Below the pieces are notes generated by a model, which saw nothing but the letters and a program-made list of their open reading frames with translations, was not told the DNA's origin and ran no database searches. A program made the position numbers and the translations under genes. Positions 9,461 to 31,678 of a DNA stretch of 34,036 nt are shown in pieces (the stretch's first letter is position 1; every line of letters starts with the position of its first letter). Source of the stretch: an uncultured Anaerolineae bacterium (GTDB lineage Bacteria; Chloroflexota; Anaerolineae; JAAYEA01); the NCBI GenBank assembly GCA_964412315.1, contig CAYPON010000004.1:2180-36215 (forward strand). Direction: 5' to 3'.

Positions 9461-10623
9461 TTTTTCTCCTTGTAATCATCCCGCGCCTGCATCATCGCCC
9501 ACACGTTTTCGGGCGGCGTGCCAGGGAGGATAGTGTTGCTGCAGCCGTGGAAATAGCCGCGGCCTTCGCTCGCTTTCAGGATGCTCATGCAGTGAGCATA
9601 CACCTCCTCGCGCGAGCCACGGCGGATCAGGTCGCCGCTGGCATTGGCCCAGATGATCAGGTGAGGGTATCGCTGGCGAATCCTGCTTAGCTCCATCGTC
9701 GCCTCGTAATCCACCTCGCCATAGCCGGGGATGCCCGCCTCTAGGAAGATCATATCGCTCACCTGCCAGATGTTGCCGTCGGTGCGCCAGACGTAGTGCA
9801 ACTCTAGCTCTCGGCAACGGTCAGCCAGTTTCTTCAGGCGGGGCAGCATGAGCCGGCGGAACATTTGCGGGGAGTAGAGCGGCCCATTCTTGTCCGCCAT
9901 GTCCCCGCCGCCCAGGACGACCTTGATGCCCCGTCGGGCGATGGCTTCCATTTGGGCGAGGGCAATCTCCAGTTGGCAATCGAGGATGTCGCCGACAGCC
10001 TTCGCTTCCAGCGCTGCCGCCATGAGCGACGCCTCGTCCACGCCAAGAGACAGCCCTCCACCACCGGCAACGACCATCATCTCCTCTCCCAACCGTGCCT
10101 GAAGCTGCGCCTCGACGAGGCCGGCGTTCTCGTGCGCGTTTTGCACTGCTGCGTCCACTTCCTTCTGTCGCTGCCGCGCCAATTCCGGCCAATCTTCAGG
10201 CCGCAGCGGTGGCGCAGTGTTTTTGACCTCAATGAAGTTCATCACCTCCACGTCCCACCGCCATATCTGATACACGCCGTCAGGATCGCCGGAAAGGAAA
10301 GTGTGCTCGTTAAGCTGAGCAACCGGTTTGATGTTTCTGCGCCAGCCGAAGCGAAAAACCTCCATGCCCAACACGCGGTGCAGCTCGAGAAGGTCTTCTT
10401 CGTACTTGCGCTCGAACTCGGCGTGGGCCTCCTTACCCGCGATCCAGGCTTTGGCTTCCGCGTACCAAAGGGAGGGGCTGCCCGTATGCACTGGCCGGCC
10501 CAGTATCTTGCTGGCCACGTCGCAGGCGATGGTCGGTGTGTAGGCTGGCACGCGGTCGGGCACGCGGCCTTCCAACGTTGCCAGGCAACGCGTATAAGGG
10601 GTCATAGAAGGTGATAGGTTCAT
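9457..10623 (-). CDS. uroporphyrinogen-decarboxylase (URO-D)/MtaA-CmuA-like family protein
   Basis: N-terminal LEGRVPDRVP and C-terminal GDLIRRGSREEV...GYFHGCSNTILPGTPPENVWAMMQA follow the URO-D family pattern. The start is set to ATG 10623 (MNLSPSM), 1 nt after the upstream stop. The track start 10689 overlaps the methyltransferase gene. Confidence 0.65.
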   Translation of the reverse strand: MNLSPSMTPYTRCLATLEGRVPDRVPAYTPTIACDVASKILGRPVHTGSPSLWYAEAKAWIAGKEAHAEFERKYEEDLLELHRVLGMEVFRFGWRRNIKPVAQLNEHTFLSGDPDGVYQIWRWDVEVMNFIEVKNTAPPLRPEDWPELARQRQKEVDAAVQNAHENAGLVEAQLQARLGEEMMVVAGGGGLSLGVDEASLMAAALEAKAVGDILDCQLEIALAQMEAIARRGIKVVLGGGDMADKNGPLYSPQMFRRLMLPRLKKLADRCRELELHYVWRTDGNIWQVSDMIFLEAGIPGYGEVDYEATMELSRIRQRYPHLIIWANASGDLIRRGSREEVYAHCMSILKASEGRGYFHGCSNTILPGTPPENVWAMMQARDDYKEKK

Positions 10624-27133: not shown

Positions 27134-29149
27134 ATGAAGAGAATCCTGATTCTAATGAGTGATACCGGTGGCGGGCATCGCGCCTGTGCGCAGGCGCTAC
27201 AGGCAGCCTTCCGGGAGCGGTATGGCGATGAATACCGGGTGGATGTCCTAGACATCTGGATGGATTATACGCGGTGGCCGCTGAACCAGATGCCGAAAAG
27301 CTATCGTTTCCTGATAAATGATGTGCCCTGGATGTGGAGGTCTATGTGGGAACTGGGCGAGAGGCCCCAGGCACTGGAGTTGGCGATCGGTGTGTGGTCG
27401 CACTGGTCCCGGAAGCCGGTCAGCCAGGTCATCGCGCAACATGATCCCGATCTGCTCATTGCGGCGCATCCCCTGATGCAGGATTTGACCTTGCGCATCC
27501 TGGCGCAAACCAGACGGAACATCCCCCTGGTGACTGTGGTGACCGACCTGGTTTCCATCCATCCCATCTGGTTTCGGCGAGAGGCTCTCCGCTGTTTTGT
27601 GACGAGCGACGAGTCCTATCGTCTGGCCTTGCAGGCTGGTCTGCCTCCTGACAGCGTGCGCCAGTATGGCCTGGCTGTGCGTCCTGCCTTTGCCCGCGAG
27701 GCTCCGCCAAAGGAGCAACTGCGCCCTACCTTGGGCCTGCGGCCTGACCTGCCCGTCGCACTGCTCACGGGTGGAGGGGAAGGGATGGGGCCGATCGGAG
27801 CCATTGCTCAGGCAGTGGCTGGGCGATTGGCAGCGGAGGGTCAGCCCAGGGGACAACTGGTAGTGATCTGCGGCAGAAATCGCAAGCTCCAGCAGGAGTT
27901 GCGTGGGCGGACCTGGCCGATCCCTACCATCATCAATGGCTTTGTGGACAACATGCCGGATTGGATGGCTGCCAGCGATTGCATCATCACCAAGGCTGGC
28001 TCGGTCACTATCGCCGAGGCTATGGTGTGCGGGCTGCCGATCCTGCTTAGCGGATATATCGCTGGCCAGGAAGAAGGCAATATACCTTATGTAGTGGAAA
28101 ACGGCATCGGCGTATATAGTCCGCATCCGCAGCGCATTGCCGAGGTCGTGGGCAATTGGTTCGGGCCGGAACGGGCCAGACTGGAGGAAATGGCGCAAAA
28201 GGCGCGTCGCATGGGCCGCCCACAAGCCGCTTTCCAGATCGTCCAAGATATCGCTGGCCTTCTGGCAGAAATGCCCACTGGCGACCTCGCTAGTCGCAAG
28301 CTTCACGCTCGCGCTTCTGCGGAAGCCGTTGCGCCTCAGCCACCCAGTCCCTTCGTGCGGGAATATTATGACCAAAACGCTGCTCGGGAATGGGAAAGGC
28401 TAGAAGGCCCTTTCAGGAAGCTGGAATTCCTGAGCACATTCCATCTTTGGGACAAATACTTCCCCAAGACCGGGCATGTCTGCGACATTGGCTGTGGCCC
28501 GGGCCGGTACGCTATTGAACTCTTGAAGCGGGGCTACCGGGTGACCCTGTTCGATTTTTCTTCCGAATCGCTGGCTCTGGCTCGCGCCAAGATCGCTGAG
28601 TTGGGCTTGCGGGCCGAGGAGTATATTTGCGCCGACGCCAGGAATTTAAGCAGCTTGGGCGACGACGCTTTCGATGCTGTGCTCCTCATGGGCCCCATGT
28701 ATCACGTGATCCGCAAAGAGGAGCGGCTGGCGATCCTGCACGAGACACGGCGCATCTTGAAGAAGGGTGGCATGGCCATGATCGCCTACATCAATGCCTG
28801 GGGCGCCATTCGTGCGGGCATCACGGGATTCTCTGATAGTTACGCCGATATTGGTCATCTCCGCTCATTGCTGAACGAAAAAGTGTACGAGGGACCGGGC
28901 AAGGTTTTCACAGAGTGCTACCTCACTACGCCGCCGGTTGCGCTGGCTGAGGTTAGGGATGCCGGTCTGGAGGTGCTCAGCTACGCAGGAGTGGAGAGCT
29001 TTGCTGCCGGACTGCGAGATGGCATGAAGGAACTGGCGGCCAACAAGCCTGAGGTGTATGCAAACGTGTTGCAGGTGGCGGCAGAGTGCTGCGAATTGGA
29101 GCAGTATCGGGATGTCACGGAGCATCTGCACATCATTGCGCGGAAATGA
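27134..29149 (+). CDS. fusion protein: plant-MGD1-type monogalactosyldiacylglycerol synthase (GT28) + class I SAM-dependent methyltransferase
   Basis: aa 1-~395: MKRILILMSDTGGGHRACAQALQAAF, VTVVTDL, GLAVRPAF, LLTGGGEGMGPI, VVICGRNRKLQ and CIITKAGSVTIAEAMVCGLPILLSGYIAGQEEGNIPYVVENG are nearly colinear with MGD1-type MGDG synthases. aa ~410-671: VCDIGCGPGRYAIELLKRGYRVTLFDFS (SAM motif I) and FDAVLLMGPMYH indicate a methyltransferase. It is one uninterrupted ORF. Confidence 0.85.
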   Translation: MKRILILMSDTGGGHRACAQALQAAFRERYGDEYRVDVLDIWMDYTRWPLNQMPKSYRFLINDVPWMWRSMWELGERPQALELAIGVWSHWSRKPVSQVIAQHDPDLLIAAHPLMQDLTLRILAQTRRNIPLVTVVTDLVSIHPIWFRREALRCFVTSDESYRLALQAGLPPDSVRQYGLAVRPAFAREAPPKEQLRPTLGLRPDLPVALLTGGGEGMGPIGAIAQAVAGRLAAEGQPRGQLVVICGRNRKLQQELRGRTWPIPTIINGFVDNMPDWMAASDCIITKAGSVTIAEAMVCGLPILLSGYIAGQEEGNIPYVVENGIGVYSPHPQRIAEVVGNWFGPERARLEEMAQKARRMGRPQAAFQIVQDIAGLLAEMPTGDLASRKLHARASAEAVAPQPPSPFVREYYDQNAAREWERLEGPFRKLEFLSTFHLWDKYFPKTGHVCDIGCGPGRYAIELLKRGYRVTLFDFSSESLALARAKIAELGLRAEEYICADARNLSSLGDDAFDAVLLMGPMYHVIRKEERLAILHETRRILKKGGMAMIAYINAWGAIRAGITGFSDSYADIGHLRSLLNEKVYEGPGKVFTECYLTTPPVALAEVRDAGLEVLSYAGVESFAAGLRDGMKELAANKPEVYANVLQVAAECCELEQYRDVTEHLHIIARK

Positions 29150-30315
29150 GCAAAATGATCTATTTCGATAACGCCGCGACCTCCTGGCCGAAGCCGCCGG
29201 GGGTGATCGAAGCGATGGTACGCCATATGACCGAAGTAGGTGCCAATCCCGGCCGCGCCGGCCATCGTCTCTCCCTAGAAGCTGGGCGGATTATCTACGC
29301 TACACGCGAGGCCGTGGCCGAACTGTTTCATGCGCCTGACCCGTTGCGCGTCGTCTTTGGTCAGAACGTGACTGACGCGCTCAACCTGGCCTTATGTGGC
29401 TTCCTGAGAGCAGGCGATCATGTCATCACCAGCAGCCTGGAGCACAATTCTGTGATGCGGCCTCTGCGCGCTCTGGAACGGGGGGGTGTGGTGGTGACGG
29501 TGGTGCGCTGCTCCGCTGAGGGGTATCTCGACCCCGCTGACGTAAAGGTGGCCATCCAGCCCCAGACGACGCTTATCGCCCTCAACCATGCTTCAAACGT
29601 GATCGGGACGCTATTGCCAGTGGCTGAGGTGGGGCGCATCGCTCGCGAGCACGATCTCCTCTTGCTGGTGGATGCAGCGCAGACCGGCGGCGCATATCCA
29701 ACGGACATGCAGGCCAATCATATTGACCTGTTGGGCTTCACCGGGCATAAATCGCTCTACGGGCCGATGGGCACCGGCGGGCTGGTCATCGGCGAGCGAG
29801 TTCCTTTAGCTCGCCTGCGGCCTCTCAAGCGCGGAGGCACAGGAAGCCGTTCGGAAGAAGAGGAGCAGCCTGACTTCCTGCCCGACTTGTACGAAAGCGG
29901 CACGCCAGCCTCCAGCCCCGCTAATCCGACAGCATTCGGCGTGCGCTGGGTGCTGGCGCGGGGGGTGGAGGCGATCCGTGCCCACGAGATGGCACTCACT
30001 ACACGGCTGATAGATGGGCTGCGGAAAATTCCTGGTGTGACCATCTACGGTGGGCTGGAAGCGTGCCGCCAGGTGGCAACCGTTTCTTTCAACGTCGCAG
30101 GCCTGGATCCAGCAGACGTGAGCCAGCGGCTGGATGAGGAATATGAGATCATGTGTCGTGCCGGGCTGCATTGCTCCCCTGCGACACACAAAACCATCGG
30201 CACCTTTCCGCAAGGGACGGTGCGCTTCGGGCTGGGATTCTTCAACACGGAACATGAGGTTGATGCTGCCCTCGCCGCCGTGCGCGAGATCGCGAGGAGC
30301 GGATATGGACGATAA
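29146..30315 (+). CDS. class-V aminotransferase-fold cysteine desulfurase / selenocysteine lyase family protein (short-N-terminus subfamily)
   Basis: MIYFDNAATSWPKPPGV, FTGHKSLYGPMGTGGL (PLP-Lys), GGTGSRSE..QPDFLPD..ESGT and AGLHCSPATHKTIGT..GTVRFG.GFFNT. ATG 29146 overlaps the upstream stop as ATGA. ATG 29155 is an alternative start. Confidence 0.85.
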   Translation: MSKMIYFDNAATSWPKPPGVIEAMVRHMTEVGANPGRAGHRLSLEAGRIIYATREAVAELFHAPDPLRVVFGQNVTDALNLALCGFLRAGDHVITSSLEHNSVMRPLRALERGGVVVTVVRCSAEGYLDPADVKVAIQPQTTLIALNHASNVIGTLLPVAEVGRIAREHDLLLLVDAAQTGGAYPTDMQANHIDLLGFTGHKSLYGPMGTGGLVIGERVPLARLRPLKRGGTGSRSEEEEQPDFLPDLYESGTPASSPANPTAFGVRWVLARGVEAIRAHEMALTTRLIDGLRKIPGVTIYGGLEACRQVATVSFNVAGLDPADVSQRLDEEYEIMCRAGLHCSPATHKTIGTFPQGTVRFGLGFFNTEHEVDAALAAVREIARSGYGR

Positions 30316-30541
30316 GCCAGCGCAAAAGTACGCTGTCATCCTGGCTTATAGCACCAGCCGCGCGCTGCGGGCGGAAAAGCTCCTGCTGGGAGCAGGAATT
30401 TCCTGCAAACTGATCCCTGTACCGCGTCACCTCAGCTCCGATTGTGGTGTCTGCCTGCGCATTGACAAAACGGACGAGGCTCGTGCCCGGCAAGTGCTAG
30501 AGGCAGCCAAGATCGAGATCGAGGGCATTCACGATTTTTGA
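30305..30541 (+). CDS. DUF3343-family putative Se/S carrier protein
   Basis: 78 aa. YAVILAYSTSRALRAEKLL...CKLIPVPRHLSSDCGVCLRI carries the DUF3343 hallmark LxPxPRxxSSxCG. ATG 30305 overlaps the desulfurase 3' end by 11 nt. Confidence 0.7.
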   Translation: MDDKPAQKYAVILAYSTSRALRAEKLLLGAGISCKLIPVPRHLSSDCGVCLRIDKTDEARARQVLEAAKIEIEGIHDF

Positions 30542-30546
30542 GAACT

Positions 30547-30610
30547 TTCAGCTATCAACGGTCAGCCATCAGCCAGAAGCTGAAGGCTGAAAGCTGATCG
30601 CTGACAGCTT
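30547..30610 (+). repeat. GCTGA-heptad intergenic repeat, copy B (5' leader of selD)
   Basis: TTCAGCTAT...GTCAGCC.ATCAGCCAGAAGCTGA AGGCTGA AAGCTGA TCGCTGA CAGCT. It contains a 7-bp pairing GAAGCTG (30577..30583) / CAGCTTC (30604..30610). It ends 18 nt before the selD ATG. Confidence 0.55.
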
Positions 30611-30628
30611 CCGAAAGGGGTGAACGGC

Positions 30629-31678
30629 ATGGCCGACAACAAGATTCGCCTGACGGCCCTGACCAGCGCGGCGGGCTGAGCAGCCAAAATGGCCCCTCAG
30701 GCCCTGGCGCAGGTGCTGCGCCCGCTGCGAGAGCTGTTTCATACCGAACAATATCCTAATCTCCTCGTCGGCCTGGATGAGAGCGATGATGCCGCCGTTT
30801 ACAAGATCAACGACGAAATGGCGATCATCCAAACGCTCGACTTTTTCACGCCGGTTGTGGACGATCCCTACGATTACGGGACCATCGCCGCCGCGAACGC
30901 TATGAGCGACGTCTACGCTATGGGCGGCGAGGTGGTCTTGGCCTTGAATATCTGTGGCTTTCCACCAGACCTTCCACCGAGAATGATCGCCGAAATCCTG
31001 CGCGGCGGCGCGGAGAAGGTACGGGAGGCGGGAGGGGCCATCGCCGGTGGCCACACCATAGACGACAAGGAGCCGAAATATGGCCTGGCCGTGATGGGCC
31101 TGGTTCATCCGCGCCGCGTGCTCACCAAACGAGGCGGTCAGCCAGGCGATGTCCTGATCCTGACCAAGCCGCTGGGCGTGGGGATCATCACCACCGCCTT
31201 CAAGGGGGATGCGGCCAATCCGGCGCACCTAGCCGGGGCGGTAGAGAGCATGAAGCGGCTCAATCGCCACGCTGCTCGTCTTTTCCAGCAGGTTGGCGTC
31301 CATGCCTGCACCGACATCACCGGCTTTTCCCTCTTGGGCCATAGCTCTGAGATGGCGGAAAAAGGCCAGGTGCGGCTCCGCTTTTTCCTGAATCGGCTCC
31401 CTTTCCTGGAGGGAGCACGAAGCTATGCCAAGGAGTGGCTTTTCCCCGGCGGAGCCTGCCGAAACAAAGAGCATTATCAAGGCGGCGTGGATTTCGCGCC
31501 GGAAATCACAGAAGAGATGCAGATGCTCCTTTTTACTCCGGAAACCTCCGGTGGCCTCCTCGCCGCCGTCGCTCCGGGCAAGGTGGATGCGCTCGCGGCT
31601 CTCTTCGCCGGGGAAGGGGAGCCTTGCTGGGTCGTGGGCGAAGTGCTGGAGGGAGAGGGGATCGAAGTCCTTCCATGA
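30629..31678 (+). CDS. selD: selenide, water dikinase (selenophosphate synthetase), selenocysteine-containing form (TGA codon 17 = Sec)
   Basis: The track ORF (30689..31678) has GLDESDDAAVYK and DFFTPVVDDPYDYGTIAAANAMSDVYAMGG, typical of SelD, but lacks the catalytic N-terminal loop. The same frame upstream reads ATG(30629) ADNKIRLTALTSAAG TGA AAK M(30689). This restores the G-[C/U]-x-x-K loop with U17/K20 at the positions of E. coli C17/K20. AAAGGGG lies 8 nt upstream of ATG 30629. Confidence 0.85.
30677..30722 (+). other. UGA-Sec recoding site plus candidate bacterial SECIS hairpin
   Basis: TGA at 30677..30679. A perfect 7-bp stem GGCGCAG (30706..30712) / CTGCGCC (30716..30722) carries a GUG loop. 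The loop begins 33 nt after the UGA with G as its first nucleotide. Confidence 0.55.

Follow-up and report, generated by a model that had tools for sequence, protein, structure and literature searches.

Where does the selD gene of this locus begin, and what does the in-frame TGA that precedes its annotated start stand for? The window, meaning the whole 34,036-nucleotide stretch of DNA analysed here, carries a gene for selenophosphate synthetase (SelD; selenide,water dikinase) that the mechanical list of open reading frames (ORFs) opens at 30689 (ORF 30689..31678, 329 aa). The first-pass annotation of the window proposed that this list truncates a selenoprotein gene whose TGA specifies selenocysteine (Sec). 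The called start lies 60 bases downstream of the true selD start, and the UGA at 30677-30679 very probably encodes Sec at catalytic residue 17 of a full-length SelD. The elements of this gene model are the following.

30629 to 31678, plus strand: full-length selD coding sequence (CDS) with an in-frame UGA at codon 17, from translation and profile matching; 349 codons plus a TGA stop.
30614 to 30620, plus strand: Shine-Dalgarno-like AAAGGGG, read from the sequence, its function suggested by spacing only.
30677 to 30679, plus strand: predicted Sec codon UGA, codon 17, from an ungapped alignment to Escherichia coli SelD (PDB 3U0O) and the conservation of the TGA.
30686 to 30688, plus strand: AAA codon 20, equivalent of the essential Lys20, from translation and the 3U0O alignment.
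30689 to 30691, plus strand: internal ATG of Met21, wrongly taken as the start by ORF finders and gene callers.

In-frame translation from the ATG at 30629-30631, which follows AAAGGGG with an 8-nt spacer, reads MADNKIRLTALTSAAG*AAKMAPQALAQVLRPL…, and the next stop occurs only at the TGA of 31676-31678. For profile searches the codon-17 stop was replaced by Cys, giving a 349-residue protein. This whole protein scored 386.8 bits against TIGR00476, the selD equivalog (cutoff 125), and 355.4 bits against NF002098 (cutoff 299), with matches that open at residues 7 and 2, respectively, and hence upstream of the TGA. Precomputed Pfam assignments for the identical 329-aa product (P0001) comprise PF00586 and PF02769, the AIR-synthase-like N and C domains. 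The best match among solved structures was E. coli SelD (PDB 3U0O), over residues 1-344 with E = 6.6e-76. The N-terminus (residues 1-36) aligns to 3U0O as MADNKIRLTALTSAAG-U-AAK, with G16-U17-A-A-K20 lying on G16-C17-G-C-K20. Because this alignment is free of gaps, UGA17 corresponds to Cys17 and the AAA of codon 20 to Lys20.

These results uphold the gene model of the first-pass annotation, which had placed the start at ATG 30629 with AAAGGGG 8 nt before it, the TGA at codon 17 and the Lys at codon 20: start, motif and both codons were recovered where it had put them. It had further equated the two codons with E. coli Cys17 and Lys20, as the ungapped alignment bears out, and had stated that the ORF track deletes the catalytic N-terminal loop, in agreement with that alignment and with the SelD profiles that match upstream of the TGA. 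Stop-to-stop ORF finding has produced the 329-aa ORF from Met21 as an artefact. Judging from the alignment, a product started at Met21 would be without the glycine-rich loop of Sec17 and Lys20, by which selenium is brought to the active site. The E. coli enzyme, a Cys17 form, has the same N-terminal length and the same loop register as the window SelD; it differs in carrying Cys (UGC) at position 17 with no selenocysteine insertion sequence (SECIS) and no hairpin, whereas the window gene has UGA and a hairpin, and in the peptide that follows the loop, which is ISPKVLETIL in E. coli and MAPQALAQVLRPL in the window.

A change of genetic code would give the TGA a meaning other than stop. The 21 long, mostly Pfam-supported ORFs of the window end in TGA (11), TAA (6) or TAG (4), and selD itself ends in TGA. 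As TGA is thus an ordinary terminator and the commonest one in the window, the code is the standard one, and TGA-reassigned codes (4, 25) were rejected. A six-frame scan of the window for ORF pairs bridged by a single TGA returned, besides selD, only shadow-frame artefacts.

Conservation of the codon was followed in the DNA of 80 genome loci (L004-L083), together with the window and three identical metagenome contigs (L001-L003). The loci span Chloroflexota, Firmicutes, Nitrospirota, Actinomycetota, Planctomycetota, Marinimicrobia and others. At the codon homologous to UGA17, 81 copies have TGA and a single one has TGC, and neither TAA nor TAG occurred there in any compared copy. In the translated loci, (I/V)(R/K)LT…AG*A.K precedes the gene body across the phyla compared, and the motif G-U-[AG]-x-K is kept in all loci. 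Residues before the UGA are nearly invariant, with L(-9) in 77/77, T(-8) in 75/77, A(-2) in 70/77 and G(-1) in 77/77 sequences. Over the 12 codons upstream of the TGA, comparison with the 10 closest relatives gave 31, 18 and 62 differences at codon positions 1, 2 and 3, and 47 synonymous against 33 non-synonymous codon differences. This codon-position pattern, together with the near-invariant residues, indicates that the stretch before the UGA is translated in the frame of the gene body.

The sole Cys (TGC) form among the 80 loci belongs to a Candidatus Binatia metagenome-assembled genome (MAG; L048, position 10034). There the hairpin found 33 nt past the UGA in the window (described below) is absent, with 3/7 pairs, and a different 9-bp hairpin stands at +27, which could be a SECIS remnant or a coincidence; SECIS-like remnants after Sec-to-Cys conversion have been described (PMC1794560). 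Three of the loci with the closest selD genes (L006, L007 and L008; 69-72% identity) come from MAGs labelled Acidobacteriota, the others being labelled Anaerolineae or Chloroflexota. The Acidobacteriota labels may reflect horizontal transfer of selD or errors of binning or labelling.

The comparison bears directly on the possibility that the TGA is an accident, either an error of sequencing or assembly or a TGC/TGT-to-TGA mutation that has inactivated a Cys-type selD and left a pseudogene. A TGA is one base from TGC, and the window comes from metagenome-type data. The sequence, TGA included, is nevertheless identical in three independent assemblies from different samples, so that sequencing error is excluded; samples ERZ781360, ERZ27245483 and JGI 3300010324 contain identical selD contigs. 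The same codon is TGA in 78 distinct relatives against a single TGC, the remainder of the ORF is unbroken and has the profile scores of a full-length SelD, and a conserved, covarying hairpin of SECIS type follows the codon. The probability left to this explanation is close to nil, and on the comparative data we regard it as effectively refuted.

It also bears on another explanation, that the TGA is a true stop and the gene starts at Met 30689, perhaps by termination and reinitiation after a 16-codon upstream ORF, to give a truncated SelD. Such a start has an ATG 10 nt past the TGA to offer, gene callers everywhere choose that ATG, and Met at codon 21 is conserved in the closest clade. In the wider set of 78 distinct TGA-type relatives, however, codon 21 is ATG in 9 and TTG in 1, and in the remaining 68 it is no start codon, being Leu, Ile, Phe, Trp, Tyr and others. 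With ATG in only 9/78, starting downstream cannot be how these genes work in general, and the 68 relatives that have no start there keep both the TGA and the upstream peptide. The 16 codons before the TGA correspond by homology to SelD residues 1-16 and change in the manner of coding sequence, inspection of the sequence upstream of ATG 30689 found no Shine-Dalgarno-like motif, and the truncated protein would be deprived of the Sec/Cys17-Lys20 loop that aligns to the E. coli catalytic loop. Relatives that start at the downstream Met with no conservation upstream of it would have spoken for a true stop; what was found is a conserved upstream peptide. A true stop at 30677-30679 is therefore highly improbable, and the downstream Met is an accident of this clade and not a conserved start.

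The same Met accounts for the appearance of this clade's SelD in databases. The closest relatives of the window SelD are 76-78% identical, and the best 120 database homologs, the window's own product aside, are 73-78% identical, nearly all 328-329 aa long, and cover 89-94% of the query; their names, where given, are Anaerolineae and Thermoflexales. The retrieved homologs all open with MGPE(A/T)LAQVLRPL, including NCBI MAG proteins named 'selenide, water dikinase SelD' (e.g., P0111 and P0017). As codon 21 is Met in this clade, every inspected entry is truncated at the same place, and essentially all the close SelD homologs (P0002-P0120) are systematically cut back to the internal Met. The source organism is probably an uncultured, Anaerolineae-like member of the Chloroflexota.

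If the UGA is to be decoded as Sec, a SECIS is expected downstream of it, and a candidate is present within the gene.

30706 to 30722, plus strand: predicted bacterial SECIS with a 7-bp stem (GGCGCAG/CUGCGCC) and a GUG loop, from folding, bacterial SECIS (bSECIS) criteria and covariation.

This hairpin lies within the codons for L-A-Q-V-L-R-P, with an interval of exactly 33 nt between the A of the UGA and the first base of the loop, and the element folded alone has a free energy of -11.3 kcal/mol. Published bSECIS criteria ask for an apical loop of 3-9 nt, an upper stem of 4-16 bp, a minimum free energy <= -7.5 kcal/mol, and a G among the first two loop bases, most often with a G or U after it, at a UGA-loop spacing of 16-37 nt (PMC13188914). 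All four are satisfied by the window hairpin, with its 3-nt GUG loop, 7-bp stem, 33-nt spacing and free energy as given. The first-pass annotation had described a perfect hairpin with its loop 33 nt past the UGA and had considered it compatible with bacterial SECIS geometry; the hairpin is as described, and to its fit with the geometry is now added support from covariation.

To assess covariation, 44 relatives of the 'xQVL' class, a set chosen by motif, were aligned over 60 nt from the UGA onward (alignment A1). In these relatives the helix formed by columns 30-36/40-46 shows 92% pairing, and 6/7 of its pairs have changed on both sides; the 33-43 pair illustrates this, with GC in 24, CG in 7, UA in 4, AU in 2 and GU in 2. 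A 9-pair version of the helix gave a covariation score of 0.281, against 0.110 ± 0.012 for shuffled alignments (0/500 reached the observed value) and <=0.096 for slid partners, and RNAalifold, given no structure, yields the same helix. The flanking residue pairs covary with the helix (A…R, S…R, A…S, A…G, A…C and G…S); since they do so through RNA pairing, the RNA structure has shaped the peptide. In the unselected set, a perfect bSECIS-compatible hairpin was present in 59/78 distinct TGA-type sequences, compared with 5.8% of shuffles. The preferred UGA-loop spacings in these 78 sequences are 33, 20, 16 and 27 nt and vary by lineage.

Across the loci L004-L083, a loop at +33 (a GUN loop inside AQVLx) was seen in Chloroflexota, Dehalococcoidia, Clostridia and Marinimicrobia. 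Coriobacteriia have a hairpin at +16/+20 (GGGGUCC…GACCUC), and Nitrospirota have one near +22 (GGUCCAA-AGG-UUUUGGACC, taken from fold printouts only). In L008 an Ala-to-Pro change disrupts the +33 helix, and a strong +16 hairpin is retained.

The SECIS of E. coli fdhF is the archetypal bacterial SECIS bound by SelB. Compared with it, the window hairpin is likewise a stem-loop in the CDS 3' of the UGA, with a G+C-rich upper stem and a small apical loop opened by G-U, and its core GCAGGU..CUGC resembles that of fdhF. It differs in that its loop is farther from the UGA, 33 nt being high within the permitted 16-37 nt, and in that a bulged U in the upper stem is not seen; SelB binding, a property of the fdhF element, is predicted here.

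Several observations weigh against a Sec-decoded selD. The support for it comes from sequence and comparison, and actual Sec insertion and SelB binding at the selD UGA are inferred from the mechanism established in bacteria. The 64 nt after the UGA fold no more stably than shuffles (z = -0.47); with the single-sequence fold so unremarkable, the case rests on the comparison with relatives. Picking the 44 sequences by their 'xQVL' class inflates the percentage paired, a bias to which the two-sided changes and the slid-partner control are less sensitive. The hairpin sits inside the codons of a conserved peptide, so that part of its conservation is owed to the protein. A search of the whole window against Rfam gave no match at gathering thresholds, and only noise at E <= 10 in 30560-30820; the hairpin is outside the curated Rfam families, which has no bearing on whether it works as a SECIS. 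As to the decoding machinery, ARAGORN found no tRNA genes at all in the 34-kb window, hence no tRNA-Sec, and tblastn with the SelA and SelB proteins of E. coli gave no match in the window. In the closest relatives, L004-L011, no selA, selB or tRNA-Sec was found at distances up to 10 kb from selD, and the same tblastn queries were without a match in L004-L014. The first-pass annotation had read from the gene a full Sec-insertion machinery and autoregulatory selenium use. The latter is an idea from the literature (PMC1794560); as to the former, we infer from the gene structure that selA, selB and selC are located elsewhere in the genome.

Such machinery was found beside related genes. A tRNA-Sec gene lies within 10 kb of a TGA-type selD in 10/60 loci (ARAGORN), and tblastn placed selA/selB next to Sec-type selD in Firmicutes, Coriobacteriia and some other loci. 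The closest relative among the ten loci with tRNA-Sec is L012, a Planctomycetales MAG with a SelD 58% identical to that of the window; its tRNA-Sec is at 9770-9866, about 130 nt upstream of the selD start, so that selC and selD are tightly linked. The Chloroflexi have been listed among the phyla with the Sec-decoding trait (PMC5322559).

The hairpin and the machinery of relatives also allow a third alternative to be weighed, in which the UGA is read through without Sec, by Cys or Ser carried on tRNA-Sec at low selenium or by a near-cognate Trp or Cys tRNA, the mature enzyme being wholly or partly a Cys, Ser or Trp form. In its favour, a Sec-dependent SelD faces a bootstrap problem, since SelD is needed to make the Sec of SelD; the Sec trait 'supporting itself' via SelD has been discussed (PMC1794560). 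The conserved hairpin of SECIS type points instead to a dedicated Sec pathway, as do the tRNA-Sec, selA and selB genes beside such genes in relatives, and with TGA the main stop of the window a reassigned code is excluded. We consider read-through of this kind very unlikely.

With the UGA read as Sec, a sequence of events can be proposed for the gene. During translation of selD the hairpin at 30706-30722 would act as a bacterial SECIS, its apical part recruiting the complex of SelB, GTP and Sec-tRNA(Sec) to a ribosome paused at the UGA. Sec would then be inserted at the UGA, outcompeting termination by release factor 2, and the resulting Sec17/Lys20 loop would work in selenium binding and phosphoryl transfer.

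Between the UGA and this predicted SECIS there is a second, smaller hairpin.

30691 to 30703, plus strand: small proximal hairpin GGCC-CCUCA-GGCC, 3' of the UGA and 5' of the SECIS, -5.3 kcal/mol.

The helix equivalent to it (columns 15-19/24-28) is only 50% paired across the 44 relatives. The closest relatives, L004-L010, have it in strong form, and Coriobacteriia and Nitrospirota have their main hairpin at this proximal distance. As a general SECIS the proximal hairpin was rejected on its 50% pairing overall, although it or a neighbour is the main hairpin in other lineages. In the clade of the window, SelB may have the +33 hairpin, the proximal hairpin or both as its partner.

In this clade a conserved AUG stands 10 nt after the UGA, and two hairpins come next in succession, at +14 and +30. 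Such a layout might serve as a selenium sensor: with selenium, active Sec-SelD would be made, and without it reinitiation at Met21 would yield a catalytically dead, N-terminally truncated SelD with a regulatory or scaffolding role. We regard this as an improbable and speculative use of the layout.

Sec-containing SelD is textbook material, with examples in Haemophilus influenzae, Aquifex aeolicus, Clostridia and Deltaproteobacteria. It is documented as a widespread selenoprotein family (PMC1794560, PMC13188914), and among prokaryotic selenoprotein families it is the second most widespread (PMC13188914); that residue 17 is Sec in many bacterial and archaeal SelD proteins, as the first-pass annotation stated, accords with this and with the 81 TGA copies found here. 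The window gene shares with the Sec-SelD of bacteria and archaea its family (TIGR00476), a UGA in the N-terminal glycine-rich loop, a Lys three residues on, and a bSECIS-conforming SECIS directly downstream inside the CDS. There is no difference in kind; in the clade of the window codon 21 is Met. Present understanding of Sec decoding is left unchanged by this selD, and the only practical news is the systematic truncation of the clade's database entries. The correct annotation would be 30629..31678 with a translation exception, UGA = Sec, at 30677-30679, the 329-aa database product being without the catalytic loop. The gene marks the organism as a likely user of Sec, with a dedicated module of NifS/Sec-lyase-like protein, DUF3343 protein and SelD.

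The other two genes of this module lie directly upstream of selD.

29146 to 30315, plus strand: class-V aminotransferase (NifS / cysteine desulfurase / selenocysteine-lyase-like), Pfam Aminotran_5 (PF00266), 280 bits; start taken from gene calls on identical contigs.
30305 to 30541, plus strand: DUF3343 / Se_S_carrier small protein, 78 aa, PF11823, 82 bits, and gene calls.

The two genes overlap by 11 nt, the DUF3343 gene ends 87 nt upstream of selD, and the trio recurs in L005, L009 and L011, which belong to other phyla. DUF3343 has been proposed as a chaperone for selenium trafficking that clusters with Sec lyase genes (PMC5322559), and delivery of selenide to SelD has been ascribed to enzymes of the Sec-lyase-like type (PMC13188914). 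By analogy the three proteins fit the known scheme of selenium mobilisation, carrier and selenophosphate synthesis, and the NifS-like enzyme and the DUF3343 selenium/sulfur carrier would form a selenium-mobilisation module that feeds SelD. The window has the same order, on the same strand upstream of selD, as the neighbourhoods of Sec-lyase/NifS-like, DUF3343 and SelD genes already reported (Lin et al. 2015, PMC5322559). A further Sec-lyase/SelD neighbourhood is the SclA-selD operon of Enterococcus faecalis (PMC13188914); according to the literature that system serves a selenium-cofactor trait with an orphan SelD. The window aminotransferase may prefer either Sec or Cys.

The leader between the DUF3343 gene and selD contains a hairpin of its own.

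30550 to 30610, plus strand: very stable imperfect hairpin in the 87-nt DUF3343-selD leader, -39.7 kcal/mol, z = -4.28.

It is made of AGCTGA-like repeats, has no U-tract, occurs as a single copy in the window and is identical in L001-L003. As a conserved regulatory RNA it was rejected, being neither conserved in L004-L014 nor repeated in the window; L004 has a different, perfect hairpin in its place. Possible roles include mRNA processing or stability and intercistronic regulation.

Two observations concern the upstream end of the module. The NifS-like gene, one intact ORF in the window, is split into 287-aa and 121-aa parts in different frames on the near-identical contigs L001 and L002, and the window differs from L001 at 29907-29937 by a 1-nt indel and a highly divergent patch of about 30 nt. 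Variation between strains, a frameshifted allele or a fault in the local assembly could lie behind this. Upstream of the NifS-like gene, an unusual ORF at 27134-29149 on the plus strand (671 aa) joins an N-part resembling glycosyltransferases of the monogalactosyldiacylglycerol (MGDG) synthase type (GT28) to a C-part resembling class-I S-adenosylmethionine (SAM) methyltransferases, and the stop of this fusion ORF overlaps the start of the NifS-like gene (ATGA).

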